64,000 nucleotides of DNA from Holophagales bacterium. GTDB taxonomy: Bacteria > Acidobacteriota > Thermoanaerobaculia > Multivoradales > Multivoraceae. Below, in pieces: positions 4,101 through 59,776 of this stretch; positions within the stretch are counted from its first letter, which is position 1, and every line of letters starts with the position of its first letter. Below the pieces are notes generated by a model. The model was not told the DNA's origin. It did no database searches and saw only the letters and a list, made by a program, of their open reading frames with translations. The translations under genes and the position numbers were made by a program. The DNA lies in the NCBI GenBank assembly GCA_009837885.1, contig VXSP01000045.1:325526-389525 (forward strand). Reading direction: 5' to 3'.

Positions 4101-4834
4101 GGCGCGGCGTCGCCGAGCGGTTGACCGCGGAGACCGGGGACTTCTGGTTCTTCCATCCGGCGAACATCGAGATGGTGATCAAGGTACTGGACGGTTGCCG
4201 GATCAACGGTCACTACTGGGTCTTTGCCGCCGGTCTGACCGACGTCCAGGTGACGACGACCGTTCGCGACCTCCGCAGTGGCCTGGAGATGAGCTGGACC
4301 AACCCGCAGGGCACCCTGTTCGAGCCAATCGCGGATTCGGAGGCGTTCGCCACCTGCGGAAGTGCGTCGAGCGTGGCCGTCGCGAGCCGGGTACGGCTCA
4401 GCGGCGCTCCGCGGGAACGCGCTGTCGACCTCTATCAGGCGAGTCTGGCCGAGAGTGATCGACTCGATCTGGCCAGCACGGCCTGTGCGGCGAGCGAGAC
4501 AGCGCTGTGCCTGCAGAGTGCCCGCTACGAGGTGCGTGCGAACTGGCAGGCCGGTGAGCAGGAGGGCGAGGCGATGGGCATGCCACGCACTCCCGACACC
4601 GGCATGTTCTGGTTCTTCAACCCGGACAACGTCGAACTGATCGTCAAGGTGCTCGATGGTTGCGCCCTCAATGGCCACCGCTGGGTGCTGATGGGCGGTC
4701 TGACGGATGTCGGCGTCGATATCTTCGTGACGGACAGCGAAACCGGCGAAGCGAGGATCTACGGGAGTCCGGGCGCTTCGGCTTTCCAGACGATGTTCGA
4801 CACAACGGCGTTCTCATGTGGCGCTGGGAAGTAG
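1103..4834 (+). CDS. Large secreted multidomain nuclease: lamin-tail domain (LTD) + EEP endonuclease/exonuclease/phosphatase domain + FN3 + two tandem Cys-containing C-terminal repeats
   Basis: N-terminal signal peptide. The LTD signature reads NEIMQNPSAVNDNQGEWFELYN. EEP motifs are present (IGIQEV, IIVGDFNAY, YASDHDG). The FN3-like stretch is PSDLVATAISSTEIELRWKD. Two roughly 105-aa repeats are visible (DFWFFHPANIEMVIKVLDGC... and MFWFFNPDNVELIVKVLDGC...). Confidence 0.8.
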   Translation: MDTRVLCAARRFAAGCVLSMGGVGAGYGQIVINEIMQNPSAVNDNQGEWFELYNAGSETVDLNTWTIKDDGSNTFTISSSTEITAGGYLVFGINATTSSNGGVTVDYDYPNGFSLSNGDDELVLLDGTSTEQDRVNWDGGPNFPDPNGASMALKATDLDNNVGSNWCEATTSYGDGDKGTPGAANDCPTAPVDFTGAIYDIQGSGAESPHVGAKVTTNDNVVTAVGAGGFFIQTPTAASDSDADTSDGIFVLYDGTTTINAGDQVDVVGEAEEFFGFTRINATMSITDASVTVDASNQTLPDPVAFGATVPSGDPASPSCAIEYECYEGMRIRIASGTVSSGSQFFRSDPVAEMYITPTSSRAFREKGLEYPGDTTNTNIPVWDTNPELFELDPNKLRDENESWVPGTAFSATGVLGYEFGGYELWPTELTRLTAATALPRPVRQRRAGEVSVASLNLLNLNASAGDYDTKLVKLSRYIREVLRSPDVIGIQEVFTIEALTALGNKIRTDGGPTYTAYVEVGNQPTGANVGFLVRSGVTVDAVTQHNKSETFVNPTTTNNDILHDRPPLQLDASVTGIEFSVIVIHNRSFIDVDTDRVQVKRLEQAESVAALAQARQDSKLIIVGDFNAYQFTDGYSDIVGVISGDFTASESKRPGMDLVNPNLKNLVADLEAAEQYSYVFRGNAQALDHALVNAEMQPSVVEMVYARGNADAAEGEEENAGSALYASDHDGFVVFLSAPGRAAPQAPGDPGGGTPQTADLDLGAESQIVSNSMVRYDVSVENEGPGIARDVVVMSSFSGGVAPVEARTSGCEEDPGGVPECSLGDIRVGESASFRINVDTGGASEASLRYSGSIVSDTSDPTPEDDDIDISQPLGPPNIPSDLVATAISSTEIELRWKDNSSVETGFEVFLQGPGDSRLRLIGSVPRNTTSMIVADLVPDIRYNFAVEAHNGPLRSGQTPKATATTWFSDAAGCADDSVLCVGSFEVEVEWTAADGRTGRGVAERLTAETGDFWFFHPANIEMVIKVLDGCRINGHYWVFAAGLTDVQVTTTVRDLRSGLEMSWTNPQGTLFEPIADSEAFATCGSASSVAVASRVRLSGAPRERAVDLYQASLAESDRLDLASTACAASETALCLQSARYEVRANWQAGEQEGEAMGMPRTPDTGMFWFFNPDNVELIVKVLDGCALNGHRWVLMGGLTDVGVDIFVTDSETGEARIYGSPGASAFQTMFDTTAFSCGAGK

Positions 4835-5094: not shown

Positions 5095-6126
5095 GTGTTG
5101 AAGGCGGTTCAGTTGGGTCAGAAGTGCGGACTCCGGGTGTCGGAGCTGTGCCTGGGAACGATGAACTTCGGAGAGCCGGGCAGGGGTCACCAGGGCGACT
5201 GGACGCTCGATATCGACGCCTCTCGGCCGATCTTCCAGGCCGCCATTGAGCGTGGACTCTTCTACTTCGACTGCGCGGACATCTATGGCATCGGCGCCTG
5301 CGAGCGGGTGGTCGGGGCGCTCCTGCGCGAGCTGCTGCCGCGCGACGAGTACGTGATCTCGACCAAGGTGTCCATGCCGATGGGCCGGTCGCCGAACCAG
5401 GGCGGGCTGTCCCGCAAGCACATCATGGAGGGGGTCGACGGTTGTTTGCAGCGGCTGGGCCTGGACTACATCGACCAGTTGATCATCCATCGCCACCCGC
5501 ACGGCATTCCCGGCCAGGTCCAGGCGCCGATCGAGGAGACGCTGGAGGCCCTGCACGACGTGGTCAAGGCCGGCAAGGCCCTCTACCTTGGCGCGTCGTC
5601 CATGTTCGCGTGGCAGTTCACCGAGCTCCAGATGACGGCGCAGCGGAACGGCTGGACCGAGTTCGTGTCGATGCAGAACCACTACAACCTCGTCTACCGG
5701 GAGGAGGAGCGTGAGATGAACCCGTACTGCGCCCGGACCGGCGTGGCGCTGACTCCGTGGTCGCCGCTGGCACGCGGCATTCTCACGGGCTCGTACAAGG
5801 GCAGCTTCGACGAGGGCGGAACGGACCGCTCGAAGGGCGGCGACCGGGTCCGCACCGAGATGCTCTACGGCGGCGCCGCCACCTTCGACATCGCCGACCG
5901 GGTGGTCGAAGTGGCCGGGAAGTACGGCCGCACGCCGGCGCAGATCTCGCTGGCCTGGCTGGTGAACAAGCCCGAGGTCACATCGCCCGTCGTCGGCGTG
6001 TCGAAGATCTCCCAGATCGAGCAGCTCGTCGAGGCGACGACGATCGACCTCGATGCGGAGGACGTCGCCTACCTGGAGGAGCTGTACCAGCCGGTCGAGA
6101 ACCTGCTGTCGCGCGGTCACTCCTGA
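5095..6126 (+). CDS. Aldo/keto reductase family oxidoreductase
   Basis: AKR signature regions are readable in the translation (LGTMNFG, YFDCADIYG, STKV, LGLDYIDQLIIHR). Length is 343 aa. Confidence 0.85.
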   Translation: MLKAVQLGQKCGLRVSELCLGTMNFGEPGRGHQGDWTLDIDASRPIFQAAIERGLFYFDCADIYGIGACERVVGALLRELLPRDEYVISTKVSMPMGRSPNQGGLSRKHIMEGVDGCLQRLGLDYIDQLIIHRHPHGIPGQVQAPIEETLEALHDVVKAGKALYLGASSMFAWQFTELQMTAQRNGWTEFVSMQNHYNLVYREEEREMNPYCARTGVALTPWSPLARGILTGSYKGSFDEGGTDRSKGGDRVRTEMLYGGAATFDIADRVVEVAGKYGRTPAQISLAWLVNKPEVTSPVVGVSKISQIEQLVEATTIDLDAEDVAYLEELYQPVENLLSRGHS

Positions 6127-10917: not shown

Positions 10918-11081
10918 GTCGGTCTCCCTCTTCGACGTGGGAGGCGGGAAGGTTTGGATCAGCGGCTTGACCGGCCGGCAGCCGGGTGCTGGAAGGCGAT
11001 GAGTATACCGAGGAGTCCGAGCGGGATCACCGCTCCCGGCGCCAGGGTCGGCATGGCGCCTCCCACGTTGGCGGCTTTCGA

Positions 11082-13229
11082 CTACGGGGCCGCCGCGGCC
11101 TGCTCGTCCGCGAGCATGTTGCGGCGGTGGAGGACGTAGGCCTTGAGCAGGGCGACATCGTCGCGGTCGAGGACGGGGTCGAAGCTGGGCATGCCGACAT
11201 CGACGAGTGCGCCTTCAAGCAGCGCTGCTTCGTAGGAGTCGAAGACGCGCTGTGACGATTGCCGCAGGTCGGGCGTGACGCCGCCGGAGACCGCGCCGTA
11301 GCCGTGGCAGACGAGGCAGTACTGGTTGAACAGCCGGCGCCCGGCATCGATGTCCTCCGCCTCTGCGCCATGGTCCACGCGGGTGACCCGGATCTCGCGG
11401 CGCTCCTGCCGCTCGATCGGCCGGCCGGTGGCGCCGAGGGCGTAGACGACGATCCGGCCTTCGGACTCGACTGCCTGCCGGGCGGAGCGGCTGCCGACGA
11501 TGCCGAAGGCGCCGCCCCAGCCGGACATGACGGCGATGTGCTGGGTGCCGCCGGACTCGAAGGTGATCGGCGGCGCGATGACGCCGCTGCCGGTGTAGCT
11601 CTCCCAGAGCTTCTCGCCGTCATCGGCTCGATACGCGGTCAACTGGCCGAAAGGCGTACCCTGAAAGACGAGGTTGCCGGCCGTGGCAAGCACGCCGCCC
11701 GACCAGGGCATCGTGTACTGCGCCCGCCAGGCCTCCCGCTGGGCGACGGGATCCCAGGCCAGCAGGTGGCCCGAGAGCAGGGCCGGCGGCGCGTCCTCGG
11801 CCAGCATCTGGCCCGAGAGGCCGGTGGCGTCGACGATTGCCTGGGGGATGTCCTCGGGAGCCGCGGCGCGGACACCCAGGTTCCATTGTCCGGGGGTGTA
11901 CTGGTAGTTCGGGTCCGGAACGTAGAAGTTCCCCATCTCCATCGCCGGGATGTAGACGAGGCCGGTCTTCGGACTGAACGCCATCGGATGCCAGTTGTGG
12001 CCGCCGAGTGGGCCCGGCGAGACGTTCACGGTCTGGTCGGTGTAGCGCGCCCCGGCGAGTTCGACGGGCCGGCCGCTGGCCAGATCGACATGGCTGGCCC
12101 AGGTGACGGTGACGAACTCCTCGGCCGAGATCAGTTCGCCGGTGCGGCGGTCGAGGACGTAGAAGAAGCCGTTCTTCGGCGCCTGCATCAGGACCTGGCG
12201 GACGCGGCCGCCGATCGGTAACTCGGCGAGCATGATCGGCTGGGTGGCGGTGTAGTCCCAGGTGTCGCCGGGCGTGGTCTGGTAGTGCCAGACGTACTCG
12301 CCGGTGTCGGGCTTAAGCGCCACGATGGACGACAGGAACAGGTTGTCGCCGCCGCCGGGGCTGCGCAGGTTGCGGTCCCAGGGCGCGCCGTTGCCGACGC
12401 CGATGTAGAGCAGATCGAGTTCCGGGTCGTAGACGATCGAGTCCCAGACCGTGCCGCCGCCGCCGCCGGTCCACCACTCGCCGGTCCAGGTCTCGGCGGC
12501 CATCCGCATCGCCTCGTTCTCGAAGCCGTCGGCCGGGTCCCCCGGCACGGTGTAGAAGCGCCAGGCTCGCTCGCCGGTTTCCGCGTCGTAGGCGTCGACG
12601 TAGCCGCGCACGCCGTACTCGGCGCCGCTGTTGCCGATGATCACCTTGCCCTTGGCGATCCGGGGCGCGCCGGTGATCGTGTACATCGAGTCCTCGGGCA
12701 CGGTCATCGTCGACCAGGCGAGTTCTCCGGTCTCGGCGTCGATGGCGATCAGCCGTCCGTCGAGCGTGGCGGAGATCACCTTGCCGCGGTAGAGGGCGGC
12801 GCCGCGGTTCACCGCGTCGCAGCAGGTCTTGTTCGCGATCGAACGCGGAACCTCCGGGTCGTAGGTCCACAGCGGTTCGCCAGTCACCGCGTCGAGGGCG
12901 TAGATGACGTTCCAGGCGCCGGTCGCGTACATCACGCCGTCGACGATCAGGGGCGTGGCCTCGAGACCCCGCTTCGTGTTCGTCTCCTGGACCCAGGCGA
13001 TGCCGAGCTGATCCACGTTGCCATCGTTGATCTGGTCCAGCACGCTGTAGCGCTGCTCCTTGTAGGTGCCGCCGTAGGTCAGCCAGTCGGCGGTGCGGCC
13101 GGCGGCGCCGACCAGCGCGGCGTCGTCGACTCCGTATGCGGCCTCGGCCCGCCGCGGCGGCGGTTGGGAGGCCGCGGCAGTGGCCAGCAGGAGCGCCACG
13201 AGCGTGGCGATCGGAGTGTGGATCTTCAT
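11082..13229 (-). CDS. Quinohemoprotein PQQ-dependent alcohol dehydrogenase (type II ADH, C-terminal cytochrome c domain)
   Basis: ATG at 13229 has an AGAGGAA SD. Signal peptide present. PQQ beta-propeller motifs are visible (DWLTYGGTYKEQRYS, W repeats). The C-terminal CLVCHG reads as a CxxCH heme-c site. The track ORF is over-extended 5'. Confidence 0.85.
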   Translation of the reverse strand: MKIHTPIATLVALLLATAAASQPPPRRAEAAYGVDDAALVGAAGRTADWLTYGGTYKEQRYSVLDQINDGNVDQLGIAWVQETNTKRGLEATPLIVDGVMYATGAWNVIYALDAVTGEPLWTYDPEVPRSIANKTCCDAVNRGAALYRGKVISATLDGRLIAIDAETGELAWSTMTVPEDSMYTITGAPRIAKGKVIIGNSGAEYGVRGYVDAYDAETGERAWRFYTVPGDPADGFENEAMRMAAETWTGEWWTGGGGGTVWDSIVYDPELDLLYIGVGNGAPWDRNLRSPGGGDNLFLSSIVALKPDTGEYVWHYQTTPGDTWDYTATQPIMLAELPIGGRVRQVLMQAPKNGFFYVLDRRTGELISAEEFVTVTWASHVDLASGRPVELAGARYTDQTVNVSPGPLGGHNWHPMAFSPKTGLVYIPAMEMGNFYVPDPNYQYTPGQWNLGVRAAAPEDIPQAIVDATGLSGQMLAEDAPPALLSGHLLAWDPVAQREAWRAQYTMPWSGGVLATAGNLVFQGTPFGQLTAYRADDGEKLWESYTGSGVIAPPITFESGGTQHIAVMSGWGGAFGIVGSRSARQAVESEGRIVVYALGATGRPIERQERREIRVTRVDHGAEAEDIDAGRRLFNQYCLVCHGYGAVSGGVTPDLRQSSQRVFDSYEAALLEGALVDVGMPSFDPVLDRDDVALLKAYVLHRRNMLADEQAAAAP

Positions 13230-15218
13230 GACTTCGGTTCCTCTAAGGCTGCAGGCAGGGCAAGCGCGACGAGTTCGGGGGGCGTGCCGCCGCCGCCGAT
13301 GCCGAAGCGGCCGCCGCCGGTGGCGACGGCCAGGTACTGCCGGCCGTCGTGTTCGTAGATGATGGGGTTCGAGTTCGGGGTGCCCGGTAACTCGATTCCA
13401 CCGAGGTACTCGCCGGTCTTCTTGTCGTAGACGCTGATCTCCGGCGGCACGTCGGGTTCGTCGGCCTCGGGATCGGCGGTGCGTTCCGGGGCGGCCGTGA
13501 CGAAGAGCAGGGTGGGCGTGACCAGGGGAGCCGCGGTGTGATTGGCGACCCCGAGCCGTCCGAGTTCGAGGTCGGCGATGGCTGGATGGTTCACCGGACC
13601 GACGCCGTGCGGGACCATCCACAGGTGCTCGCCGGTGTTCAGATCGATCGCCGTGATTCGCCCGTATGGTGGCTTGACCAGGGGCAATCCACGGGGTCCC
13701 TCGACGGTCCGGTACCAACGATCCGGCACGAAGTTCAGGTCGGAGCGGTTCGGATCGGGCCTGGTCAGGGAGACGCTGGCCGAACGGGTGTGGGAGACGA
13801 CGTAGAGGATTCCGGTTTCGGGATCGACCGCGGCGCCGGTCCAGTTCGCGCCGCCGCCGTCGGCCGGCAACTGGATCGTCGGCTTTCCCGCCTCCTCGAA
13901 GCGCGGCGGCGTATAGAGCGGCACCAGGTCGTAGTCGGCTGCGATCTCGATCGCCTCGGCGCGGAGTTCGGGAGTCCAGTCGATCAGGTCGTCTTCGGTG
14001 ATGCCCTGGCGATCGAAGGCGGCCGGCCGGGTGGGGAAGGGCTGGGTTGGCGCGGCACGCTCGCCCGGCACGTCGCTTGGCGGCACCTCGCGTTCCTCGA
14101 TCTCCCACACCGGCTTGCCGGTCACACGGTCGAAGACGAAGGCGAAGGCCTGCTTGGTGACCTGGACCACGCCGCGCACCCGCTCGCCCTCCACCGTCGC
14201 CTCGAACAGGTTGGGGGCGGTCGGCGGGTCGTAGTCCCAGAGGCCGTGGTGGACGAACTGGTAGTGCCACTGGCGCTGGCCCGTTTCGCAGTCGACCGCG
14301 ACGATGCTCTCGGCGTAGAGGTTGTCACCGAGCCGGTGGCCGCCGTAGAGATCGTTGGTCGGCGTGCCGACCGGCAGATAGGCGGTGCCGGTCTCCTCGT
14401 CGACCGCGATCATGGACCAGACGTTCGTGTTACCGCTGTAGCGCCACGACTCGTCCTCCCAGGTTTCGACGCCGAGTTCGTCGTTCTGCGGGATGGTGTG
14501 GAAGACCCAGGCGAGATCGCCGGTCGGGATGTCATAGGCGCGCACGAACCCGGGCGGCGCTTCCTTGTGGGTGGCGAAGTCCGCCACGATCGAGCCAACG
14601 ATCACGGTGTTGCCGCAGACTGCCGGCGGCGAACTGTGCGTCGTCAGGCGCTCCATCACCTCGCGACCCAGGTGCGGCGTCATCTCGACCGCGCCGCCGT
14701 TGCCGAAGTCCGGATCAGGCTCTCCGGTTGCGGCGTCCAGGGAGATCAGCCGCCGGTCGTGGGTGGGGATCAGCACCCGCTCCTGCTGGCCGTCCGTCCA
14801 CCAGGCGACTCCGCGGTGGTGGAAGCCGAGGTTGGCCGGCCGGCCGGCGCGCCAGCTTTCCGGGTCGTAGGCCCAGAGCGTCTCGCCCGTCCCGGCGTCG
14901 ATCGCGGCGACCTGGCTGAGCGAGGTAGCGACGAAGATCCGGCCGCCGACCTCGAGCGGAATCGCCTTGAACTGGCCTCGTCGCACGCTGCTCGGGACTT
15001 CGGTGTCCGCGGCGATCGAGCGCCAGCGCCAGACGACCTCCACGTCCTGGAAGTTGGAGCGGTCGATCTCGTCGAGCGTCGAGTACTTGCTGTTGCCGGG
15101 ATCGCCACCGAAAGCCGGCCAGTCGCCGGAGGTTCCGGCCTGGGCCGTGAGCGGCGAACTCGCGAGTGAGCTGGCGAGCGCCGCGAGAGCGACGGCGAGG
15201 CTGGAATGGGTACTCAGG
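13226..15218 (-). CDS. PQQ-dependent dehydrogenase (second quinoprotein, no heme domain)
   Basis: The conserved mature N-terminus GDWPAFGGDPGNSKYSTLDEI and propeller repeats are present. There is no ATG/GTG/TTG between the upstream stop and this conserved N-terminus. The only candidate start is CTG at 15217, overlapping the upstream TGA (CTGA). ATGA overlap with the downstream ADH. Confidence 0.75.
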
Positions 15219-15687
15219 ACAGCAGCCCGATCAGGCGGGCGTAGACCGAAACGCTGGTCCAGATGCCGATCGAGAGAAAGCCGACCACCTTGGGCCAGTG
15301 TCCGAGCGTTCCTTCCTCGGCGAAGGCGACCCGGCGGCGGATCGTGAAGTTGAAGAGCAGCCCGATGACGATGATCTGAATCTTCCACCAGAAGAACGGG
15401 CTGTAGTACTGCTTGAGCGCCGTGGACAGGACCTGGGGCGCGCCGGTCACGAACAGGGCGACGAAGCTCCAGATCATCCACCGGTCCATCTCTCGGGCGA
15501 GCTGGTTGAGAGGCGTCTTGATCAGGCCGCGTCCAAGCAGGCGCATGTCGACGACCAGGACGGCGCCGGCGAAGCCGACCAGCGCCACCAGGTGAGCGCA
15601 CTGGATGATCGGCGACGCCCAGGTCTCCTCCAGCATCCAGGCGCTGAAGGGCAGGCCCTGCATCCACTCGAAGAAGGACTGCAACAT
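15214..15687 (-). CDS. 4-TM membrane protein, paralogue B (unknown function)
   Basis: Hydrophobic 157-aa ORF, paralogous to the upstream 174-aa ORF. Shared pattern: FEW..LP.S....E.......P.I...H.....FAG....DMRL.G. One His is conserved in TM1. Confidence 0.55.
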   Translation of the reverse strand: MLQSFFEWMQGLPFSAWMLEETWASPIIQCAHLVALVGFAGAVLVVDMRLLGRGLIKTPLNQLAREMDRWMIWSFVALFVTGAPQVLSTALKQYYSPFFWWKIQIIVIGLLFNFTIRRRVAFAEEGTLGHWPKVVGFLSIGIWTSVSVYARLIGLLS

Positions 15688-15711
15688 GTGGACGTTTCCT
15701 CCGCGGCCTCT

Positions 15712-16236
15712 TCAGGCGCCGATGTTCAGGTTGTTCCACCAGCCGGGCATCAGGCCGCTGTAGGCCATCATCCGTCCGGTGACCACGACCGCCGCCCACA
15801 ACACGAGGGACACGACCCCGGCGAGTCGGGCGTTCAGCGGAATCTCGCGGCCCTGGTCCCACGCCTGGACCGACTTGTAGGTCGCGTAGTGGAACCAGAA
15901 CATGTTGATGCCGGCGACAAGCATCAGCGCCATCTTGGCCCAGAAGTAGAAGTTGCCGTAGTACCGCATCGGCTGGCTGTAAAGCAGCAATGCCCCGGTG
16001 ATCAGGTTGATGCCGTAGCCGGTCAGCGCCCACGGGAAGAGGCGGGTCGGGATGTTCGATACCGGCACCTTCTTGAGCGTGAACCCGATCAGGCGCATGT
16101 CCCAGTACGCGATCAACCCGGCGAACAGGCACATGCTGACGACGTGGATCGTCAGCATGGTCGGGTAGGCGTTCAGCGACTCCCGCAGCGCGATGCTGCT
16201 GGGAAGCGCATCGACCCACTCGAAGAGGCTACGCAT
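15712..16236 (-). CDS. 4-TM membrane protein, paralogue A (unknown function)
   Basis: 174-aa hydrophobic ORF in the same operon and orientation. Paralogue of 15214..15687. Confidence 0.55.
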   Translation of the reverse strand: MRSLFEWVDALPSSIALRESLNAYPTMLTIHVVSMCLFAGLIAYWDMRLIGFTLKKVPVSNIPTRLFPWALTGYGINLITGALLLYSQPMRYYGNFYFWAKMALMLVAGINMFWFHYATYKSVQAWDQGREIPLNARLAGVVSLVLWAAVVVTGRMMAYSGLMPGWWNNLNIGA

Positions 16237-16292
16237 GAGCTATGTAGGGGAGGGTTCAGCGGCTCCCGGCCTGCGCCGGGGCGAATGCGGGC

Positions 16293-16826
16293 TCAGTCGT
16301 CGCAGCGGTCCTGGTACTTGCGGTAGACGAAGTGGCAGTCCTCGCAGGCGCCGGCAAGCTCGTTGGTGAGGTCGCTGACCTTGTCGCGGTCCTTCTCGTG
16401 GGCGGCGGTGTAGATCTTCTTGGCGACCTCGGTGAGCTTGCGCGCATACTCCTGATAGTCGTCTTTCTGGACCGGCGCCGGCTTGCCGTTCTCGCACATC
16501 CGGTCCGGGTTCAGGATCTGCGGTTCGACCTCGGCCAGGGCAAGCGCCGCCTGCTGGGGAACCTGCCAACCCGTGTAGATACTGGCGAAGCGGGCCGAAG
16601 CGGAACCGTCGCCGCTGTCGGACGCTTCGGGCGGCGCCTCCGGATCGTAGGACTGGACATCGAACAGGTGGTTCGAGTTCGGGAACAGGATGGCGCGCAT
16701 CAGTTCGGCCAGGTTGCCTACCGGCTCCTCGTGCTCGGAGGCTGCGACGGACGGCGCCACAATCGCCATACACGCTGCGAGGGCCACCGCGGCGGTGAGA
16801 ATCGGCGCGAGTCTGGTCAGGCGCAT
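16293..16826 (-). CDS. Class-II-like c-type cytochrome (C-terminal CxxCH), periplasmic
   Basis: ATG at 16826 has a GGAAGGAGAA SD. Signal peptide MRLTRLAPILTAAVALAA. The single CEDCH motif sits near the C-terminus, typical of cytochrome c'/c556 four-helix-bundle cytochromes. Confidence 0.6.
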   Translation of the reverse strand: MRLTRLAPILTAAVALAACMAIVAPSVAASEHEEPVGNLAELMRAILFPNSNHLFDVQSYDPEAPPEASDSGDGSASARFASIYTGWQVPQQAALALAEVEPQILNPDRMCENGKPAPVQKDDYQEYARKLTEVAKKIYTAAHEKDRDKVSDLTNELAGACEDCHFVYRKYQDRCDD

Positions 16827-18772: not shown

Positions 18773-19678
18773 TCAGTCGGCGAGAAACGCCCGCGCCACG
18801 GCGACGAACTCGTCGAGCTGGTCGTGATGGACCCAGTGGCCGGCGCCTTCGAAGTTGCGAAGCTCCGCGCTTTGGAACGCTTCGATGCGGCCGTCCTCGA
18901 CCGGGTCGCTGGCCCAGCTCTCCGTGCCCCGAACCAGCAACGTGGGGCAGGTGATCCGGCCCCAGATGCTCCGCAGTTCCTCCTCGTCGTAGCGGTAGGG
19001 CGGGAAGGAGCGCACGTAGTTGTCGAACTTCCAGGTGTAGGTGCCGTCCTCGTTGCGCGCCATGCCGTTGACGGTGAGGTGGCGGGCCTGTTCGGGGCTC
19101 AGGAAGCTGTTCACCTCCTGCATCCGCTCGGCTGCGGCGCCGAGCGACGGGTAGCGCCGGGGCTGCCGCCCCGCGAGCTTCTGCATGTTGCCGACCCAGC
19201 CTCGCATACGCTCGTCGACCGCCGCGTTGACCCGGTCGGCGAGGATGCGGGGAGGCGGTCCCATCCCTTCGATCGCCACCAGCTTGTGGACGTTCCCGGG
19301 GTAGAAGCCCGTGTAGTGCAGCGCGATGTTCGCGCCCAGCGAGTGGGCGACGATGCGCACCGGGAAGCGGTCCAGTGCTTCCAGCAGCTGCGCGATGTCG
19401 AGGACGAAGTCGGTGATCGCGTACATGCCGCCGATCGCCCATTCGCTGTCGCCGTGACCGCGCAGGTCCGGCGCCACGATGTGGTAGTCGTGACGGAGCG
19501 CGTTCGCCACCCAGTCCCAGTTGTGGGCGTGGTCGCGACCGCCGTGGATCAGCACCAGGGGCGGTTTGTCCTCGTTGCCCCAGTTCAGGTAGTGAAGCCG
19601 CAGCCGCTGGGAGATGTAGAACTGGGACGACGGGCCGACGATGTCCCGGAAGCGACTGTCGCTGAAGGCGGTGCTCAC
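18773..19678 (-). CDS. Alpha/beta hydrolase fold protein
   Basis: HGGRDHAHNWDW and the nucleophile elbow AHSLGA are present. Length 301 aa. Confidence 0.8.
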   Translation of the reverse strand: MSTAFSDSRFRDIVGPSSQFYISQRLRLHYLNWGNEDKPPLVLIHGGRDHAHNWDWVANALRHDYHIVAPDLRGHGDSEWAIGGMYAITDFVLDIAQLLEALDRFPVRIVAHSLGANIALHYTGFYPGNVHKLVAIEGMGPPPRILADRVNAAVDERMRGWVGNMQKLAGRQPRRYPSLGAAAERMQEVNSFLSPEQARHLTVNGMARNEDGTYTWKFDNYVRSFPPYRYDEEELRSIWGRITCPTLLVRGTESWASDPVEDGRIEAFQSAELRNFEGAGHWVHHDQLDEFVAVARAFLAD

Positions 19679-21505: not shown

Positions 21506-22366
21506 CTAGCCTCGCTCCTTTGCGAATGCGACTGTGCCGCGCAGCTCTTCGTAGGAACTGTGACCCGTCGCCGGTTTCACGATCCGCTGCCACTCTCGAT
21601 CCCAGACCTCGAGGACTTCGCGCGGTACTTCACGGGAGCCTTCTCCCGACTTTCCCTTGCGGACCTTTGTTGTGGTGCCGGAGGCGGGGAGGCCGCAGGG
21701 GGCGTTTCGGGCGTTGCGGACCAGGTGGTCGTCGAACTTCGAGCTGTGTTCGCGCATGAAGCCGATTGACGCTTGCCGGGTCGCGATCTCGATGTTGGGG
21801 TGCTCCGGGTCGAGCTTGAGGAACGCCGCGACGCGGGCGGTGGCGGCGGGGAGGTCGGCGACGATGTCCTCGAAGCAGAGCCAGAGGGTCTCCGGGTCCA
21901 GGCGCTCCGGCCACCAGGACACGAGGTGTTCCCAGTAGCGGCCGCTACGGGTGCCGTGGAAGATGAAGTCGAGGGCGAAGTCGCGGATCGAGACGGTCCC
22001 GGGCTCGAACACCCAGCCGCTGAAGAAGTGGAAGAAGGAGACGAGCGAATCGACCGGGTCGCGGACGACGAAGATGTTGCGCCCACCTTTCGGTGCCAGT
22101 TCCCGGCTCAGGTGGGTCTTGAACGCTCTGGGCTCGGCCCGCTGGTGTGCGTCGAGGTCGAGGCCGATGTCGTGGGCGACTTCGAGCCAGGGGACGACTT
22201 CCGTGATCTCGTCGAAGTCCATGTCGCCGCCGGTGCGGAGCCCGTGGACGATCTGCTGCATCAGGGTCGTGCCGGCCTTGGGATAGGTGGCGATCAGGAT
22301 GTCGCTGGGCCGCAGACTGAAGTCGAGACCGCGCCGTACTCCTTCTCGTGTGGCGAAGCCGGCCAT
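21506..22366 (-). CDS. Sulfotransferase family protein
   Basis: PAPS-binding motifs YPKAGTTL and RDPVDSLVS are present. ATG at 22366. An alternative GTG at 22426 overlaps the exoIII stop (GTGA). Confidence 0.75.
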   Translation of the reverse strand: MAGFATREGVRRGLDFSLRPSDILIATYPKAGTTLMQQIVHGLRTGGDMDFDEITEVVPWLEVAHDIGLDLDAHQRAEPRAFKTHLSRELAPKGGRNIFVVRDPVDSLVSFFHFFSGWVFEPGTVSIRDFALDFIFHGTRSGRYWEHLVSWWPERLDPETLWLCFEDIVADLPAATARVAAFLKLDPEHPNIEIATRQASIGFMREHSSKFDDHLVRNARNAPCGLPASGTTTKVRKGKSGEGSREVPREVLEVWDREWQRIVKPATGHSSYEELRGTVAFAKERG

Positions 22367-22422
22367 GCGCCGCCTGATGCCCTCGACCGTAGTGGCCCGG
22401 TGAGGCGTCACGGCGCTGTCGC

Positions 22423-23232
22423 TCACCCGAGTACCTCGGCCGAAAGGTCGACGCCGACCGGGCAGTGGTCCGAGCCGGTCACGTGCGTCAGGATGAACGC
22501 CCGCTCGACGAAACGCATCGCGGCCTCCGAGGCGAGCACGAGGTCGATCCGCCAGCCGACGTTGCGCTCGCGGGCCTGGAAGGCCTGCTTCCACCAGCTA
22601 TAGCGCACCGTGTCGGGGTGCAGGGTCCGGAAGGTGTCGATCCAGCCGGCGTCGAGCCAGCGCTGGACCTCGTCGCGTTCCTCCGGCAGGAAGCCGGAGT
22701 TCCTCGCGTTGTCCTTCGGGCGCGCCAGGTCGATCGGCTGCGGCGCCGTGTTGAAGTCGCCGATGACCAGGACGCGATAGCCGGCGGCGCGGGCCTGGTC
22801 GAGCTGGGCGAACAGGGCGCGGTAGAAGCCCAGCTTGTAGGGCACGCGGCTGTTGTCTCGCTTGCTGCCGCTGCCCTTCGGGAAGTAGACGTTCGCCACC
22901 AGCAGTTGGCCGAAGAGAGCCAGTTGCAGACGGCCCTCGGCGTCGAAGCGCGGTTCGCCGAGCGAGGTGCGGACCCAGGCCGGCTCCAGGCGGGAGTAGA
23001 GGCCGACGCCGGAGTAGCCTGGGCGCTCGGCGCTCGAGAAGGAGGTGTGCCAGCGCGTGGGCCGGCGAAGCTCCGGCGCCAGTTGCCCGGCGCGGGCCTT
23101 CGTTTCCTGCAGGCCGACGATCTGAGCCCGGCTCTTTCCCAGCCAGTCGAGGAAGCCCTTGCGCCCGGCGGCGCGCAAGCCGTTCACGTTCCAGGAGACG
23201 ACGCGGATGCGACGGCGCTTCCGGGGGCTCAG
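22423..23232 (-). CDS. xth: Exodeoxyribonuclease III
   Basis: The full ExoIII core runs from RIRVVSWNVNGLRA to DHCPV. The track start (GTG 23187, VNGLRA) truncates the conserved N-terminus. There is no canonical start upstream; CTG at 23232 overlaps the GNAT TGA stop. Confidence 0.75.
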   Translation of the reverse strand: MSPRKRRRIRVVSWNVNGLRAAGRKGFLDWLGKSRAQIVGLQETKARAGQLAPELRRPTRWHTSFSSAERPGYSGVGLYSRLEPAWVRTSLGEPRFDAEGRLQLALFGQLLVANVYFPKGSGSKRDNSRVPYKLGFYRALFAQLDQARAAGYRVLVIGDFNTAPQPIDLARPKDNARNSGFLPEERDEVQRWLDAGWIDTFRTLHPDTVRYSWWKQAFQARERNVGWRIDLVLASEAAMRFVERAFILTHVTGSDHCPVGVDLSAEVLG

Positions 23233-23852
23233 GTGCGGCTCCGCTTCCCGGCGCCCAGGTCGTAGGACATGATCATCATGTCGCGGGTGCGCCCGGAGCG
23301 GTCGATGACCCAGTCGGTGAGCAGCGCCTCGGGCGAGAACCCGAGGCGCTCGAACACCCGGCGTGCTCCAATCTGCTCACGCGTCATCTGCGCTACCAGC
23401 TTGAGCAGACCCAGCTCTCTGGCCGTCTCGAACACCCGCTCGGTCAGCACGTGGCCGAGCCCGCAGCGGCGATGGGCCTCGGCGATGATCACGCGGATCT
23501 CGCCGAGGTGACTCATCCAGTGCAGGCCTCGAAGGTTCAGGCTGCCGTAGCCCACCAGCTCGCCTTCGTAGTGGGCCAGGGTAGTGAAGCGGCTGCCGGT
23601 GTCGGCGTCGTGGATCCATCCCTCCACCACGTCCGGATCGGTCAGGTCCGAGCGCAGGAACTGGAGGTCGATCTCGGGCAGGGCGCTGGCGAGCGAGACG
23701 ATGTCGTCCCGGTCGGCAGGGCGCAGGCGGCGCAGGTCGTAGGTGCGATCGCCGCACTGGACCTGGTCGACGGATTGGGTGCTCACGGGCCGCTCGGTCG
23801 TGCCCGGGTGGCGCGGCCGCGCCACCCGTGCCCCAGTCCGCGCGCCCGTCAT
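23229..23852 (-). CDS. GNAT family N-acetyltransferase
   Basis: Acetyl-CoA binding region RRCGLGHVLTERVFETARELG. ATG at 23852. Confidence 0.7.
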   Translation of the reverse strand: MTGARTGARVARPRHPGTTERPVSTQSVDQVQCGDRTYDLRRLRPADRDDIVSLASALPEIDLQFLRSDLTDPDVVEGWIHDADTGSRFTTLAHYEGELVGYGSLNLRGLHWMSHLGEIRVIIAEAHRRCGLGHVLTERVFETARELGLLKLVAQMTREQIGARRVFERLGFSPEALLTDWVIDRSGRTRDMMIMSYDLGAGKRSRT

Positions 23853-23938
23853 TGGGTGCGCGGATGGCAACCTGCAAAGCTAGCAGGTTCGCCGTCGGGT
23901 ATCGTCGCGCGCGAACGGAATCAGGGAGGGCGGGAGAA

Positions 23939-41466: not shown

Positions 41467-41470
<4 letters not shown>
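40913..41470 (+). CDS. pyrR: Bifunctional pyrimidine operon regulator/uracil phosphoribosyltransferase PyrR
   Basis: PRTase motif [22 protein letters not shown]. 185 aa. Confidence 0.85.
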
Positions 41471-42416
<946 letters not shown>

Positions 42417-42420
<4 letters not shown>

Positions 42421-55933: not shown

Positions 55934-56407
55934 ATGAACCTGAAGGTCATTCACATCGTCTTCGTCGGCAGCGCCATTCTCCTGGCGCTGTTCTTCGGCG
56001 GCTGGTGTCTGGCGCAGGGGAGCGCGTTCGCGGTGGGCGCCGTTCTTTCCTTCGCGGTCGCGGCTGCGCTCGTCTGGTACGGCATCTGGTTCTGGCGCAA
56101 GATCACGACGCCCGAAGAGGAGTGGGCTCGCCGGCGCAAGCTGTTCCGCACGATTCCCGTTGCCGTGGTCGTCTGGCTCTTCGCCTCCGAGCCGGCGGCC
56201 TGGGCCTGCTCGGTCTGCTACGGGGCCGCTGAAGGGTCGATGATCGACGCGGCCCGGGCCGGGGTGTGGTTCCTGCTGGCGGCCGTGTTCGTGATGCAGG
56301 GGGCCTTCGTTCTCTTCTTTCTCTATCTCCGGCGCCGTGCCCGGCGTCTGCGAACCGACCCGGTGCCGCCCTGGTGGAGCACCGTTGAGGAGCCTGTCAA
56401 GTCATGA
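55934..56407 (+). CDS. Hypothetical 4-TM membrane protein with a CSVCYG motif, embedded in the oxidase operon
   Basis: 157 aa hydrophobic ORF. The CxxC sits at a TM boundary. ATGA overlap with the coxB start. Confidence 0.45.
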   Translation: MNLKVIHIVFVGSAILLALFFGGWCLAQGSAFAVGAVLSFAVAAALVWYGIWFWRKITTPEEEWARRRKLFRTIPVAVVVWLFASEPAAWACSVCYGAAEGSMIDAARAGVWFLLAAVFVMQGAFVLFFLYLRRRARRLRTDPVPPWWSTVEEPVKS

Positions 56408-57335: not shown

Positions 57336-58730
57336 ATGAGCGGTTGCACACCCCTCTGGGGCCGCCGCGAGCTGTTGAAGGCGGCCTGGGTAGGGCCTTC
57401 GGCGGCGGCCGCCGCGTTTAGCGCCCACGCCGCGGCGAGTCAGGAAGCTGACGAAGACGACGCCGCGGGGCAGCCGGCCGAAGAGGCGCTCAAGGCATAC
57501 CGGGCGGGCTTCGCCGCTCCGCCGCTCGAGCGGGTGCGGATCGGTTTCGTCGGCGTCGGCCTTCAGGGCGGCGGCCACGTCCGGAACTTCCTCCGCATCG
57601 AGGGGGTCGATCTCGTGGCGGTCTGCGACATCGACGAGCGTCGCGCCGAGGAGGTGGCCTCGTGGATCGTCGACGCGGACAACGAGCCGCCCGAGCTCTA
57701 CACCCGGGGCGAGACGGACTTCAAGCGTCTCTGCGAGCGCGACGATATCGACCTCGTCTTCAACTCGACCCCCTGGCGGTGGCACGTTCCCGTCTGCGTC
57801 GAGGCGATGGAAACCGGGAAGCACACCGCGGTCGAGGTGCCGGCCGCGATCACGCTCGAGGGCTGCTGGCGTCTGGTCGAGACCGCCGAACGCACCGCGC
57901 GGCACTGCGTGATGATGGAGAACTGCAACTACGGCCGCAGCGAGATGATGGTCCTGAACATGGTGCGCCAGGGCCTGCTGGGAGACCTTCTTCACGGCGA
58001 GGCGGCCTACATTCATGACCTGCGGTCGATCAAGTTCTCCGATCGCAACGAGGGACTGTGGCGCCTGCAGCACTCGGTGGAACGGAACGCGAACCTCTAC
58101 CCGACCCATGGCCTTGGGCCAGTAGCCCAGTGCATGGACATCAACCGGGGCGACTGCTTCGACTACCTCGTCTCGCTGTCGAGCCCGGCCAAGGGGCTGG
58201 CGCTCTACGCGGCGGAACGGTTCGGCGCCGACGATCCGCGGGCCAGGGTCCGCTACGCCCTGGGTGACATGAACTCGAGCCTGATCCGGACGCGGCGCGG
58301 GCGCAGCATCCTGCTGCAGCACGACACGACGACGCCCAGACCGTACAGCCGGCTCAACCTGGTGCAGGGTACCCGCGGCGTGTTCGCGGGGTTTCCGGAC
58401 CGGATCTTCATCGAAGGCGAGGCCGAGGGGCACGAGTGGAGCGATGTCGAGCCCTACCGGGAGCGCTTCGAGCATCCGTTGTGGGCGGAGCGGTCCGGCG
58501 ATGCCGAGGGCGCCGGCCACGGCGGCATGGACTACCTCGAGGACTACCGGCTGGTCCGCTGTCTGCTCGAGGGCACGCCCACCGACATGGACGTCTACGA
58601 CGCGGCGGCGCTGTCGGCGCCGGTCGAGTTGAGCGAACTCTCGGTCGCCCGGGGCAGCGAGCCGGTCGAGTTCCCCGACTTCACCCGCGGCGCCTACCGG
58701 ACGCGGCCGCCGCTGGGGATCGTCGCCTGA
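57336..58730 (+). CDS. TAT-secreted Gfo/Idh/MocA-family NAD-binding oxidoreductase (GH109-like)
   Basis: Twin-arginine motif RRELLKAAWVG. IGFVGVGLQGGGH Rossmann motif. EVPAAIT region. Confidence 0.8.
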   Translation: MSGCTPLWGRRELLKAAWVGPSAAAAAFSAHAAASQEADEDDAAGQPAEEALKAYRAGFAAPPLERVRIGFVGVGLQGGGHVRNFLRIEGVDLVAVCDIDERRAEEVASWIVDADNEPPELYTRGETDFKRLCERDDIDLVFNSTPWRWHVPVCVEAMETGKHTAVEVPAAITLEGCWRLVETAERTARHCVMMENCNYGRSEMMVLNMVRQGLLGDLLHGEAAYIHDLRSIKFSDRNEGLWRLQHSVERNANLYPTHGLGPVAQCMDINRGDCFDYLVSLSSPAKGLALYAAERFGADDPRARVRYALGDMNSSLIRTRRGRSILLQHDTTTPRPYSRLNLVQGTRGVFAGFPDRIFIEGEAEGHEWSDVEPYRERFEHPLWAERSGDAEGAGHGGMDYLEDYRLVRCLLEGTPTDMDVYDAAALSAPVELSELSVARGSEPVEFPDFTRGAYRTRPPLGIVA

Positions 58731-59776
58731 GAGTCGCCTACCTTCTGCCCGGCGCCGCCCTCTACGGCGGCGTCAAGGTGGTCTTGCAGCACGCCCGGGC
58801 GCTCCGCAGCCTCGGAGTCGACGCGACCGTCCACTCGCCGGATCCGTGCCCGGCCTGGTTCGACGGGGCGGACGCCTTCTACCGGCAGGTTCGGGCCCTC
58901 GACCGGCGATCGCTGCCGCGGGTCGAGGTGGCGGTGGGGACGCTGGCGCCGACGGTCGCTCCGGCGATCGAGGTCGCCGAGTACCTGGCGTGCCACCTGT
59001 GCCAGGGCTACGAGCCGGCCCACGAGACGCTGTCTCGCGCCGAGCGCGCTGGGATGCTGGCGGCGTACGAGTTGCCGGCCCGGAAGCTGGTCGTGTCGCC
59101 TCACCTCGTCCGCACGGTTCGCGAGCGGCACGGCGTCGAGGCTCACTGGATTCCGCAGCCGTTCGAGCCGGCGCTGTTCCGACCCCCGGAGGAGGAACGA
59201 GAAGACGATGGCCGGCTACGTGTGCTCGTTAGCGGCCACTGGGATCTCGAAGTCAAGGGAGTCGCCTGGTGCCTGCGCGCACTACGGCCGCTCTTCGAAC
59301 GAAGCGGTCGCCGTCTCGACCTGGTGCGCCTGTCGCTCGACGCGGATGCCGAGGAAGTCTCCTTCTGGCCGGAAGCGGAGCGGCATCGTCACGTTCTTCC
59401 CGCCGAGGTTCCGGCATTGATCCGAGGCGTCGACCTGTGCATCGGACCGTCGTCGCCGCTCGAAGGCTTCGGCCTGCTCGCGCTCGAAGCGATGGGCTGC
59501 GCCCGTTCCTGCGTTCTGACGGAGATTCCCTCCCACCGCGACCTCGATCCCGAAGACCGGGCCTCGATCAAGGTGCCGTTCGGCGACGCGGAGGCGCTTC
59601 GAGTTGCGGTGGAATGCCTGTGGCGCGACCGCGACCTGCGGTGGCGGCTCGGCATGGCGGGGCGGGCGATCGCCGAAACGTACACGGAACGCCGCACCGG
59701 CGAAGCGCTGATGCGGGCGTTCGGCGTCGACCCGGTGAGGCGGCAGCCCGCGGCTCAGACGAAGATCGAGACGTAG
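58727..59776 (+). CDS. Glycosyltransferase family 1 (GT4-like)
   Basis: Conserved N-terminus LRVAYLLPGAALYGGVKVV. C-terminal EGFGLLALEAMGCARSCVLTEI. There is no ATG/GTG/TTG before the conserved N-terminus; CTG at 58727 overlaps the upstream TGA. Confidence 0.7.
   Translation: MRVAYLLPGAALYGGVKVVLQHARALRSLGVDATVHSPDPCPAWFDGADAFYRQVRALDRRSLPRVEVAVGTLAPTVAPAIEVAEYLACHLCQGYEPAHETLSRAERAGMLAAYELPARKLVVSPHLVRTVRERHGVEAHWIPQPFEPALFRPPEEEREDDGRLRVLVSGHWDLEVKGVAWCLRALRPLFERSGRRLDLVRLSLDADAEEVSFWPEAERHRHVLPAEVPALIRGVDLCIGPSSPLEGFGLLALEAMGCARSCVLTEIPSHRDLDPEDRASIKVPFGDAEALRVAVECLWRDRDLRWRLGMAGRAIAETYTERRTGEALMRAFGVDPVRRQPAAQTKIET

Follow-up and report, generated by a model that had tools for sequence, protein, structure and literature searches.

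Initiation at CUG has been described before in bacteria. N-terminal proteomics in Deinococcus assigned conserved CTG starts to rpsL and Deide_03051 and an ATC start to dnaA, the rpsL CTG being conserved across Deinococcus-Thermus, and ATT or ATA starts of infC and the CTG start of the plasmid protein RepA in Escherichia coli were noted as well (PMC2830850). Here we analyze a 64,000-nucleotide (nt) stretch of DNA from an uncultured Holophagales bacterium (contig VXSP01000045.1, positions 325,526 to 389,525), hereafter called the window, in which three genes, coding for a pyrroloquinoline quinone (PQQ)-dependent dehydrogenase, exonuclease III and a GT4-family glycosyltransferase (GT4), probably start at a CTG that overlaps the TGA stop codon of the preceding gene. 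To our knowledge, CUG starts are regarded as exceptional in bacteria.

The three genes resemble the Deinococcus cases in that the genome is G+C rich, the genes are essential or housekeeping ones, the conserved N-termini lie upstream of the canonical starts (ATG, GTG or TTG), the CTG itself is conserved, and the genes were initially misannotated. They differ in that labeled N-terminal peptides prove the Deinococcus starts, whereas those described here are predicted from sequence comparison. Moreover, some four noncanonical starts were found in a whole genome in Deinococcus, with no reported link to gene overlaps, as against three among about 62 genes here, all at or near an upstream stop codon. 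RepA is likewise a natural case of bacterial CUG initiation, in a single plasmid gene as opposed to a lineage-wide chromosomal pattern. The arrangement also recalls translational coupling at −4 overlaps (PMC6728339, PMC10666635, PMC12548453), with co-directional genes, two bases shared with the UGA and a Shine-Dalgarno-like motif in the 3′ end of the upstream gene, and the known distance dependence of such coupling fits a switch from CTG to canonical starts at spacers of at least 86 nt. However, the described overlaps involve ATG or GTG, whereas the overlapped codon here is CUG, which in the GT4 gene persists even without an overlap. The CUGA overlap is not discussed in these reports on stop-start overlaps: the text of PMC6728339 mentions none of CTGA, GTGA and TTGA, PMC10666635 names ATGA and GTGA, and no CUG appears in PMC12548453. 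Conserved CTG starts are thus of a kind already known from Deinococcus and RepA; what is new is the CUGA overlap form, the density of three cases in about 62 genes, the conservation at the family level and the systematic misannotation in databases.

The window has a G+C content of 67.6% and corresponds to positions 370,540 to 434,539 of scaffold ENGE20-1_SAMN12347678_METAG-scaffold_2 (ENA ERZ23491927; 567,961 bp), from which locus L001 matches window positions 5214-25687 exactly. A codon-usage model yielded a map of 53 genes in the window and about 62 with nine flanking genes taken from the contig and a sister strain. Around each junction, every in-frame ATG, GTG, TTG, CTG, ATT, ATC and ATA was listed as a candidate start. 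Orthologous loci came from metagenome-assembled genomes labeled Acidobacteriota, Thermoanaerobaculia, Holophagales, 'Candidatus Multivorans' or 'Ca. Multivoraceae', many of them sponge or coral bins and about 25 of them complete long-read chromosomes. The GT4 set combines the window with 38 orthologous loci (70-91% protein identity) from a scan of species-representative genomes, i.e., 39 sequences. The close set for the exonuclease comprises seven loci (the window, L004, L005, L006, L007, L052 and L053), as does that for the PQQ locus (the window, L006, L007, L048, L049, L050 and L051). L004 is a 4.8x long-read contig and L005 a 396x circular chromosome.

A preliminary description of this DNA had reported four CTGA junctions, those of the three genes and one at 6123, and all of them are present in the window sequence. 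It had also cautioned that CTGA should be common, and the tetranucleotide by itself is indeed uninformative, with 437 copies in the window against 465 expected and 23 of the 53 predicted genes ending in it. At ten junctions the CTGA shares the frame of the next gene, and in seven of these a canonical start follows 1 to 18 codons further on. The nonrandom part is the absence of a canonical start: in the gene map, only the PQQ dehydrogenase, exonuclease and GT4 genes lack one near the onset of coding, and all remaining mapped genes have one a few codons or less from theirs. At each of the three junctions, two co-directional genes form an exact −4 overlap, at positions 15214-15217, 23229-23232 and 58727-58730, a class of overlap described with ATG or GTG as the partner of the stop codon.

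The GT4 locus has the following features.

57336..58730, plus strand: upstream GFO_IDH_MocA/GH109-like oxidoreductase gene (PF01408, PF21252), ending in PLGIVA followed by TGA
58715..58719, plus strand: GGGGA, a Shine-Dalgarno-like motif 7 nt upstream of the GT4 CTG
58727..58729, plus strand: CTG, the proposed GT4 start, its TG shared with the oxidoreductase TGA at 58728-58730
58727..59776, plus strand: GT4-family glycosyltransferase gene, 349 codons from the CTG (Pfam PF13692, PF00534)

An oxidoreductase orthologue precedes the GT4 gene at all related loci, and codon 0 is CTG in 39/39 sequences. Read from there, the window protein begins with (M)RVAYLLPGAALYGGVKVV. Nearly all variation in codons 1 to 25 is synonymous (TAT/TAC; CTT/CTC/CTG; GCC/GCT/GCG/GCA; GGC/GGT/GGA/GGG), while the amino acids encoded by codons −1 to −8 are not conserved and in L021 the frame is closed by a stop at −5. 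All 39 sequences share the C of the CTG, whereas each of the 21 fourfold-degenerate sites of the first 74 codons varies among them. Canonical codons of this frame lie downstream at GTG 58778 (+17) and TTG 58784 (+19) and upstream at GTG 58481 (−82) and GTG 58436 (−97), the latter two inside the oxidoreductase gene. At many GT4 loci, the stretch from the upstream in-frame stop to the CTG is free of canonical starts, and downstream of the CTG, L037 has none within 30 codons. In about 45 outgroup proteins (43-58% identity), which start with M[KR]V[VI][YF]LLNG.ALYGGVKVV, the Met is residue 1 and the GG falls at the index that it has in the window protein. One clade member (P0257, at L133) has GTG-CGG at codons 0 and 1 after a 105-nt spacer, and its upstream gene retains the relic end CTGAGAGTC. 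The GGV loop of the GT4 protein aligns, if weakly, to the N-terminal GGV of PimA, and we take the GT4 N-terminus to be comparable to MRIGMV..PGGVQSHVLQLAEVLRDAGHEVSVLAP of that protein. From a CTG start, we predict N-terminal-region peptides VAYLLPGAALYGGVK, with the (M)R-VAYLL... form at the very end of the protein.

At the GT4 junction, replacement of the oxidoreductase codon GCC by GCG or GCA would be synonymous and would create GTG or ATG. That the first base stays C even so suggests that the weak start itself may be under selection, for low or tunable output. The AUU of infC is a weak, noncanonical start, autoregulated by IF3. As in that gene, a poor start is conserved here where a one-base change would improve it, which implies selection for low or regulated initiation; the codons differ (AUU there, CUG here), as do the products, a translation factor there and metabolic or repair enzymes here. 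The second GT4 codon (58730-58732, plus strand) is AGA, the rarest arginine codon of the window (22 of 1553). It is AGA in 32 of the 39 genomes, including those without the constraint of an overlapping TGA, and CGG in the GTG-started L133.

For the exonuclease, the features are these.

23229..23870, minus strand: upstream GNAT acetyltransferase gene (PF00583, PF13302), start candidates TTG 23870, GTG 23825 and GTG 23786
23239..23242, minus strand: GGAG, a Shine-Dalgarno-like motif 6 nt upstream of the exonuclease CTG, in the 3′ end of the acetyltransferase gene
23230..23232, minus strand: CTG, the proposed exonuclease III start, its TG shared with the acetyltransferase TGA at 23229-23231
22423..23232, minus strand: exonuclease III gene (Xth/APE1 family), 269 codons from the CTG (PF03372)

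There is no ATG, GTG or TTG in the exonuclease frame from the in-frame stop at 23379 to GTG 23187, an interval whose near-cognate codons are CTG 23313, CTG 23232 and ATC 23208. The protein predicted from CTG 23232 carries an Arg-rich N-terminal extension, SPRKRRR, ahead of IRVVSWNVNGL; residue 12 aligns to position 1 of PF03372, residue 2 of the solved structure of E. coli ExoIII (1ako) is matched by residue 10 and residue 4 of Mth212 by residue 9, and the N-terminal peptides to be expected are VVSWNVNGLR and IRVVSWNVNGLR. Six of the seven close loci have an in-frame CTGA. Counted from the Trp of SWNVNG, it lies 13 codons upstream in L004, L007, L052, L053 and the window and 39 codons upstream in L006, where a 78-nt insertion shifts it with the frame kept. 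This in-frame insertion (L006, 9890-10000) encodes a Pro/Arg/Ala-rich stretch between the acetyltransferase CTGA and the exonuclease core. In L005, a 1-nt difference puts the acetyltransferase TGA in frame, and a TTG at −11, 3 nt after the stop, starts MVGRRRIRVVSWN. All seven close loci have CGGAGC 6 nt before the CTG, amid codons of the upstream gene that vary. Homologues of up to 70% identity start with M(x)2-4LR[IV]VSWNVNGL, and a canonical start at −5 to −14 is present in nearly all of about 70 outgroup loci. The eight closest database entries (83-91% identity) are all truncated calls that begin with MSWNVNGL or MNGL. A special tRNA was considered as well, but the one that ARAGORN reported, a 97-nt tRNA-Arg(CCG) within the exonuclease coding sequence (22636-22732, minus strand), is most likely a false positive; Rfam, its tRNA model included, found no RNA family in the window at gathering thresholds.

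The exonuclease gene in turn overlaps a sulfotransferase gene, at a junction that can serve as a canonical comparator.

22423..22426, minus strand: GTGA overlap of the exonuclease stop with the GTG start of the sulfotransferase gene

This overlap is GTGA in the window, L006, L007, L052 and L053 and CTGA in L004. Ahead of the first ATG, codon changes in the conserved segment RATTVEGIRRR are synonymous, indicating that the overlapped NTG is the sulfotransferase start. The linker before RATTVEGIRRRM is variable, at 18-30 codons, with the frame always kept (window 22366-22426, minus strand; L004 10762). The L004 junction would thus be a further CTG case in a relative, and on a 4.8x contig it is suggestive only. 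In the same contig (16280-17700, minus strand), an RND adaptor gene is called at 310 amino acids (aa) as opposed to 456 aa in L005, leaving about 470 nt upstream uncalled; no canonical start lies near the onset of coding, probably owing to a low-coverage indel, and another noncanonical start could also account for this.

The PQQ dehydrogenase locus reads as follows.

15214..15687, minus strand: upstream DUF6644 membrane-protein gene (Pfam PF20349), ending in GLLS followed by TGA
15215..15217, minus strand: CTG, the proposed PQQ dehydrogenase start, its TG shared with the DUF6644 TGA at 15214-15216
13226..15217, minus strand: PQQ-dependent dehydrogenase gene, 663 codons from the CTG (Pfam PF01011)

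Translated from the CTG, the product reads STHSSLAVALAALASSLASSPLTAQA and then GTSGDWPAFGG, i.e., a signal peptide followed by the domain. Residues 1-27 are the predicted signal peptide, MSTHSSLAVALAALASSLASSPLTAQA, after which the protein continues with GTSGDWP; the cleavage site is placed by the AQA motif alone, and the mature N-terminus should yield the semitryptic peptide GTSGDWPAFGGDPGNSK. Positions 1-594 of PF01011 align to residues 33-628. CTG 15217 is the sole NTG or ATN codon from codon −45 to the hydrophobic core of the signal peptide. The nearest canonical codon downstream is GTG 15043, at +58, and the nearest upstream is GTG 15388, at −57 within the DUF6644 gene, separated from the CTG by Arg-rich nonsense. 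An in-frame CTGA lies 30 codons before GDWP in the window, L006, L048 and L049 and 32 codons before it in L007, owing to a 6-nt in-frame indel. Where the two genes are separated, the start is a GTG exactly at −30 (L050, 110-nt spacer) or an ATG at −34 (L051, 86-nt spacer). The n-regions predicted from CTG are MSTRSS, MSGRSS, MSPRSCR and MTRHSSS, and an Arg-containing n-region is found in relatives. Database homologues have inconsistent starts, being cut within the hydrophobic core, extended from an ATG in the upstream gene or, for two of them, proper. The junction is identical in the assembly of a second sample and in an independent Logan assembly, and the exact DUF6644 protein is present in three assemblies. 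The genes belong to an operon-like array (11082-16826, minus strand) of a cytochrome c′-like gene, two DUF6644 genes and two PQQ dehydrogenase genes, the second with a C-terminal cytochrome c domain; the counterparts of this array in relatives hold two or three PQQ genes, and DUF6644 may be a membrane partner of the quinoproteins.

We consider it likely that these are three intact, functional genes whose translation starts at CUG. The predicted coding signal of each starts at its CTG: amino acid conservation among relatives begins directly after this codon and collapses upstream of it. In each gene, conserved and required coding sequence lies 5′ of every plausible ATG, GTG or TTG, so far as alignments can tell. 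The CTG at the 5′ edge is kept by orthologues (GT4, 39/39; exonuclease, 6/7; PQQ, 5/7), and it appears conserved across a family-level clade of Thermoanaerobaculia ('Ca. Multivorans'/Multivoraceae). Outgroup orthologues of all three genes have ATG, GTG or TTG at the homologous position or a few codons from it, and canonical starts at that position also occur in L133, L050, L051 and L005. All three junctions recur in other genomes, in both short-read and long-read assemblies. From these comparisons, translation would have to begin at, or right before, the codon that follows each CTG, where CTG is the sole near-cognate codon. A Shine-Dalgarno-like motif 5-10 nt upstream is conserved for the exonuclease (GGAG, 6 nt) and GT4 (GGGGA or GAGGAG, 7-9 nt) genes and is not clear for the PQQ gene; in this genome, 19 of 47 canonical starts follow a motif of this kind, the background being 21.5%.

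The preliminary description had proposed CTG initiation used repeatedly in this organism, and comparison with relatives strongly supports it for all three genes, i.e., three of about 62, to which the L004 sulfotransferase adds a probable case. It had called for alignment with homologues to fix the N-termini, and the conserved N-termini indeed reach the CTG, with the outgroup Met or canonical starts near the same position. Its statement that the conserved N-termini lie upstream of every in-frame ATG, GTG or TTG is strictly true of the exonuclease and not literally so of the PQQ dehydrogenase (GTG 15388) and GT4 (GTG 58481/58436); as those GTGs lie inside the upstream genes, are implausible as starts and are not conserved, the statement stands for every plausible start. 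Likewise, CTG is the only candidate at the 5′ edge of coding conservation, as was claimed, but the exonuclease frame also offers the near-cognate ATC 23208.

Several observations weigh against CUG initiation or limit the case for it. CUG is strongly discriminated against in E. coli (PMC11497404). Our case is comparative throughout, and since the related loci are phylogenetically nonindependent, counts such as 39/39 exceed the number of independent observations. In about 12 kb past the window ends, the nine extra genes all have canonical starts and no new CTG case appeared. The PQQ junction has no convincing Shine-Dalgarno motif upstream of its CTG, and an ATG lies nine codons upstream of it, inside the upstream gene, in L007, P0122 and P0124. 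In L006 and the P0001/P0002/P0008 subclade, the exonuclease might instead start at a GTG that lies two codons ahead of the Trp, so that L006 is ambiguous. Finally, the link between CTG and a short distance to the upstream stop reflects few, phylogenetically linked events, with one exception, L032, where CTG follows an 82-nt spacer.

How such a poor initiator might be used can be outlined for CUG starts of this kind. The initiator fMet-tRNA would read CUG with a first-position mismatch. In the exonuclease and GT4 genes, the GGAG or GGGGA element 6-7 nt upstream, in the 3′ end of the preceding cistron, would position the ribosome. Ribosomes terminating at the overlapping UGA may raise the local supply, so that even a very poor initiator yields enough product. 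Such coupling would be an aid and not an obligation, as the GT4 CUG comes with a Shine-Dalgarno motif of its own at loci where 13-82 nt separate it from the upstream stop.

A stricter form of coupling would have CUG used only after termination at the overlapping UGA, with no Shine-Dalgarno-directed or de novo initiation. Reinitiation depends on IF2 and fMet-tRNA, an excess of IF3 inhibits it (PMC2268962), and it drops steeply at distances above some 20 nt (PMC10666635). In the window, each of the three junctions is an exact −4 overlap; the PQQ CTG occurs only with an overlap and gives way to GTG or ATG at spacers of 86-110 nt; the GT4 relative with a 105-nt spacer has GTG; and the sulfotransferase overlap switches between GTGA and CTGA. 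Over the three families, spacers of up to 28 nt after the upstream stop go with CTG at nearly all loci and with a canonical start once (exonuclease of L005, TTG), and spacers of at least 82 nt go with CTG once (GT4 of L032, 82 nt) and with canonical starts three times (L050, L051 and L133). This pattern fits a model in which nearby termination would make CUG tolerable. In the GT4 set, however, the oxidoreductase stop overlaps the CTG in 23/39 sequences and lies 13-82 nt upstream of it in 16/39. Seven of these 16 spacer genomes carry a duplication of about 20 nt that keeps a second in-frame CTGA at the upstream stop, seven codons before the conserved CTG, as obligatory coupling would have it. 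In the other nine, the CTG stands alone, with no in-frame overlap, with GAGGAG, GGAGA or GAGGA 7-9 nt upstream and often without a canonical codon as far back as the in-frame stop. All 39 GT4 sequences have, 7-10 nt upstream of the CTG, a motif rich in purines (GGGGAT, AGGGAT, GAGGAT, GAGGAGT or GGAGAT), including those in which it falls in a noncoding spacer. That GT4 CUGs stand alone at 13-28 nt with strong Shine-Dalgarno motifs argues that overlap coupling is not required, and Shine-Dalgarno-directed initiation at CUG is probably at least part of the mechanism. The GGAG conserved upstream of the exonuclease CTG points the same way, and the L005 exonuclease, with TTG 3 nt after a stop, shows that proximity does not force CTG. 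Obligatory coupling is thus unlikely as a general explanation; it is not supported for GT4 and is plausible for PQQ. Of the termination-reinitiation coupling put forward in the preliminary description, the part that survives is the confinement of the PQQ CTG to overlaps and the GTG of the GT4 relative with a 105-nt spacer, whereas the persistence of the GT4 CTG at 13-82 nt means that coupling is not required there. Regarding the duplication, the tandem repeat ...GGGCATCGTGGCCTGA TCCGTAGGGATTGTGGCCTGA... was seen at the junction in L018, L020, L024, L026, L030, L038 and L044, at about 5955-6004.

CUG initiation would be dispensable if the public gene models were right and the conserved upstream stretch remained untranslated. 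Prodigal and NCBI use the downstream starts (GTG 15043, GTG 23187 and GTG 58778 or TTG 58784), and the poor initiation at CUG in E. coli (PMC11497404) speaks for them. These models, however, remove essential parts. The 605-aa model from GTG 15043, which is the source gene call, drops the 27-residue signal peptide of the PQQ dehydrogenase and the first 26 positions of PF01011. A start at GTG 23187 costs the exonuclease strand 1 and the SWN asparagine, as Pfam and 1ako alignments indicate, and the earlier warning that the catalytic N-terminus would be lost is borne out. The GT4 protein would lose strand 1 and the GGV loop. NCBI and Prodigal GT4 models have 330-333 aa and start at codons +17 to +19, and public models from other clade members, including those named 'glycosyltransferase family 4 protein' by NCBI, are truncated to 306-333 aa; a glycosyltransferase fragment in an NCBI 'Holophagales bacterium' entry is 100% identical to the window protein. 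The supposedly untranslated stretch varies with codon periodicity and only synonymously, and outgroup proteins start upstream. Nor are the downstream canonical codons conserved as start capable, those at GT4 positions +17, +18, +19 and +25 interchanging with non-start synonyms (GTG with GTC; TTG with TTC, CTG or CTC). We therefore regard the public models as very unlikely to be right.

It is just as improbable that another codon replaces the CUG, be it ATC 23208, which would give M-RVVSWN, to be compared with MKFVSFN in E. coli, or one of the far-upstream GTGs (15388; 58481/58436). Codon −5 of the exonuclease is ATC, CTG or ATT, hence near-cognate, in all close loci, in-frame GTGs do exist upstream in the PQQ and GT4 frames, and genomes of the L007 type offer the ATG nine codons upstream of the PQQ CTG. 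However, no Ile codon is commoner in the window than ATC, and no Leu codon commoner than CTG. Codons −12 to −6 of the exonuclease are under protein-level constraint, and L005 starts at TTG −11: the product from CTG to IRVVS reads S-P/Q-R-x-R-R-R, and its Arg codons vary synonymously among relatives (CGG, CGA, CGC, CGT and AGG, with changes from CGG to AGG), which argues against a start at ATC 23208. The upstream GTGs are absent or cut off by in-frame stops in many relatives, and the intervening translation is Arg rich, out of frame and devoid of coding score.

The two remaining explanations can be set aside. Programmed −1 frameshifting or recoding that fuses the upstream and downstream proteins has a negligible probability: in the window, every downstream gene lies in the −1 frame relative to its upstream neighbor, and this frame is open across the junction, but none of the three junctions has an X XXY YYZ slippery heptamer at a distance of up to 60 nt, the counterparts in relatives show spacers, in-frame stops (L021) or canonical starts of their own (L050, L051, L005 and L133), the partner proteins are unrelated, and the PQQ protein begins with a typical signal peptide of the cleavable kind. 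Sequencing or assembly error, or decay of the genes after loss of their starts, deserves equally little credence, for although the source is a metagenome assembly and one supporting locus, L004, a 4.8x contig, the junctions recur in dozens of independent short-read and long-read assemblies, and the open reading frames (ORFs) are intact and under purifying selection across lineages at 70-91% identity.

The other CTGA junctions that could have been taken for starts have canonical alternatives. Two are coincidental:

6123..6126, plus strand: CTGA at the aldo-keto reductase stop, in the DUF1800 frame; TTG 6177 works instead
18773..18776, minus strand: CTGA at the hydrolase stop, in the DUF418 frame; GTG 18755 is used instead

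TTG 6177 gives MKHRVHPGG and a hydrophobic core, i.e., a normal signal peptide, and the codon score is negative between CTG 6123 and TTG 6177, in keeping with the preliminary remark that this TTG also works. CTG 18776 was rejected for DUF418 as GTG 18755 gives MTTADS..., comparable to the ATG-started MTTAES... of L005; DUF418 relatives have GTGA, or ATG with a Shine-Dalgarno motif. CTG 10962 was likewise dismissed, with an in-frame ATG 15 codons downstream. At this place, a 31-codon ORF called in the source assembly (10959-11054, minus strand) ends in CTGA, and the CTG is in frame with a 162-aa gene (ATG 10917). Borderline coding onsets at 8134, 10971, 20276, 22327 and 62517 all proved to have canonical starts with sensible signal peptides or N-termini. 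An automated census of L004 to L007, in which onsets without a canonical start from −30 to +12 codons were flagged, returned five noise-like flags and missed the exonuclease, and it was not used. The CCTGAG context shared by all four junctions was considered as a methylation or systematic-error motif and discarded: it is not enriched in the window (32 copies against 42 expected), other bases precede CTGA in relatives, and the junctions recur in many assemblies.

Canonical ATGA or GTGA overlaps occur in the window at 13226-13229, 22423-22426, 41467-41470, 42417-42420 and 56404-56407. Among its 33 TGA-ending genes, the base before the stop is C in 23, G in five and A in five. This skew is well beyond what third-position composition would lead one to expect; it may stem from termination context or from the avoidance of GTGA and ATGA as accidental starts. 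The CTGA arrangement at 10962 recurs behind a 142-aa gene in L004 (1263-1266), where 'SKRET' is conserved right before an ATG and is probably part of the ribosome-binding region. Elsewhere, the window ORF of 1243 codons at 1103-4834 (plus strand) corresponds to two genes in a sister strain from another sample (L135, 6074-9740), of 578 aa (LTD domain) and 662 aa (CLIPPER/fn3), by a strain frameshift difference or an assembly error in one of them.

Gene callers limited to ATG, GTG and TTG would truncate or wrongly extend these proteins in public databases, and Prodigal and NCBI models do so across this clade of sponge-, coral- and marine-associated Acidobacteriota. Because the annotated forms lose the export signal of the PQQ dehydrogenase, the catalytic-site strand of the exonuclease and the nucleotide-sugar loop of the glycosyltransferase, predictions of localization and function, as well as the database sequences themselves, would be wrong. 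The orthologues with overlaps, short spacers and long spacers form a natural series for how far termination-reinitiation relaxes the stringency of start codon choice. The count of three conserved cases among about 62 genes suggests that the use of CUG in some lineages far exceeds its use in model organisms. It is possible, although we hold the idea to be doubtful, that the Multivoraceae lineage has relaxed or retuned start selection such that CUG is a routine fourth initiation codon for a few percent of its genes. If so, on the order of 100 CUG starts per genome would be expected, favoring stop-start junctions and kept to set low translation rates, and lineage-specific changes would be predicted in IF3, in the anticodon stem of the initiator tRNA or in the P-site nucleotides of 16S rRNA.

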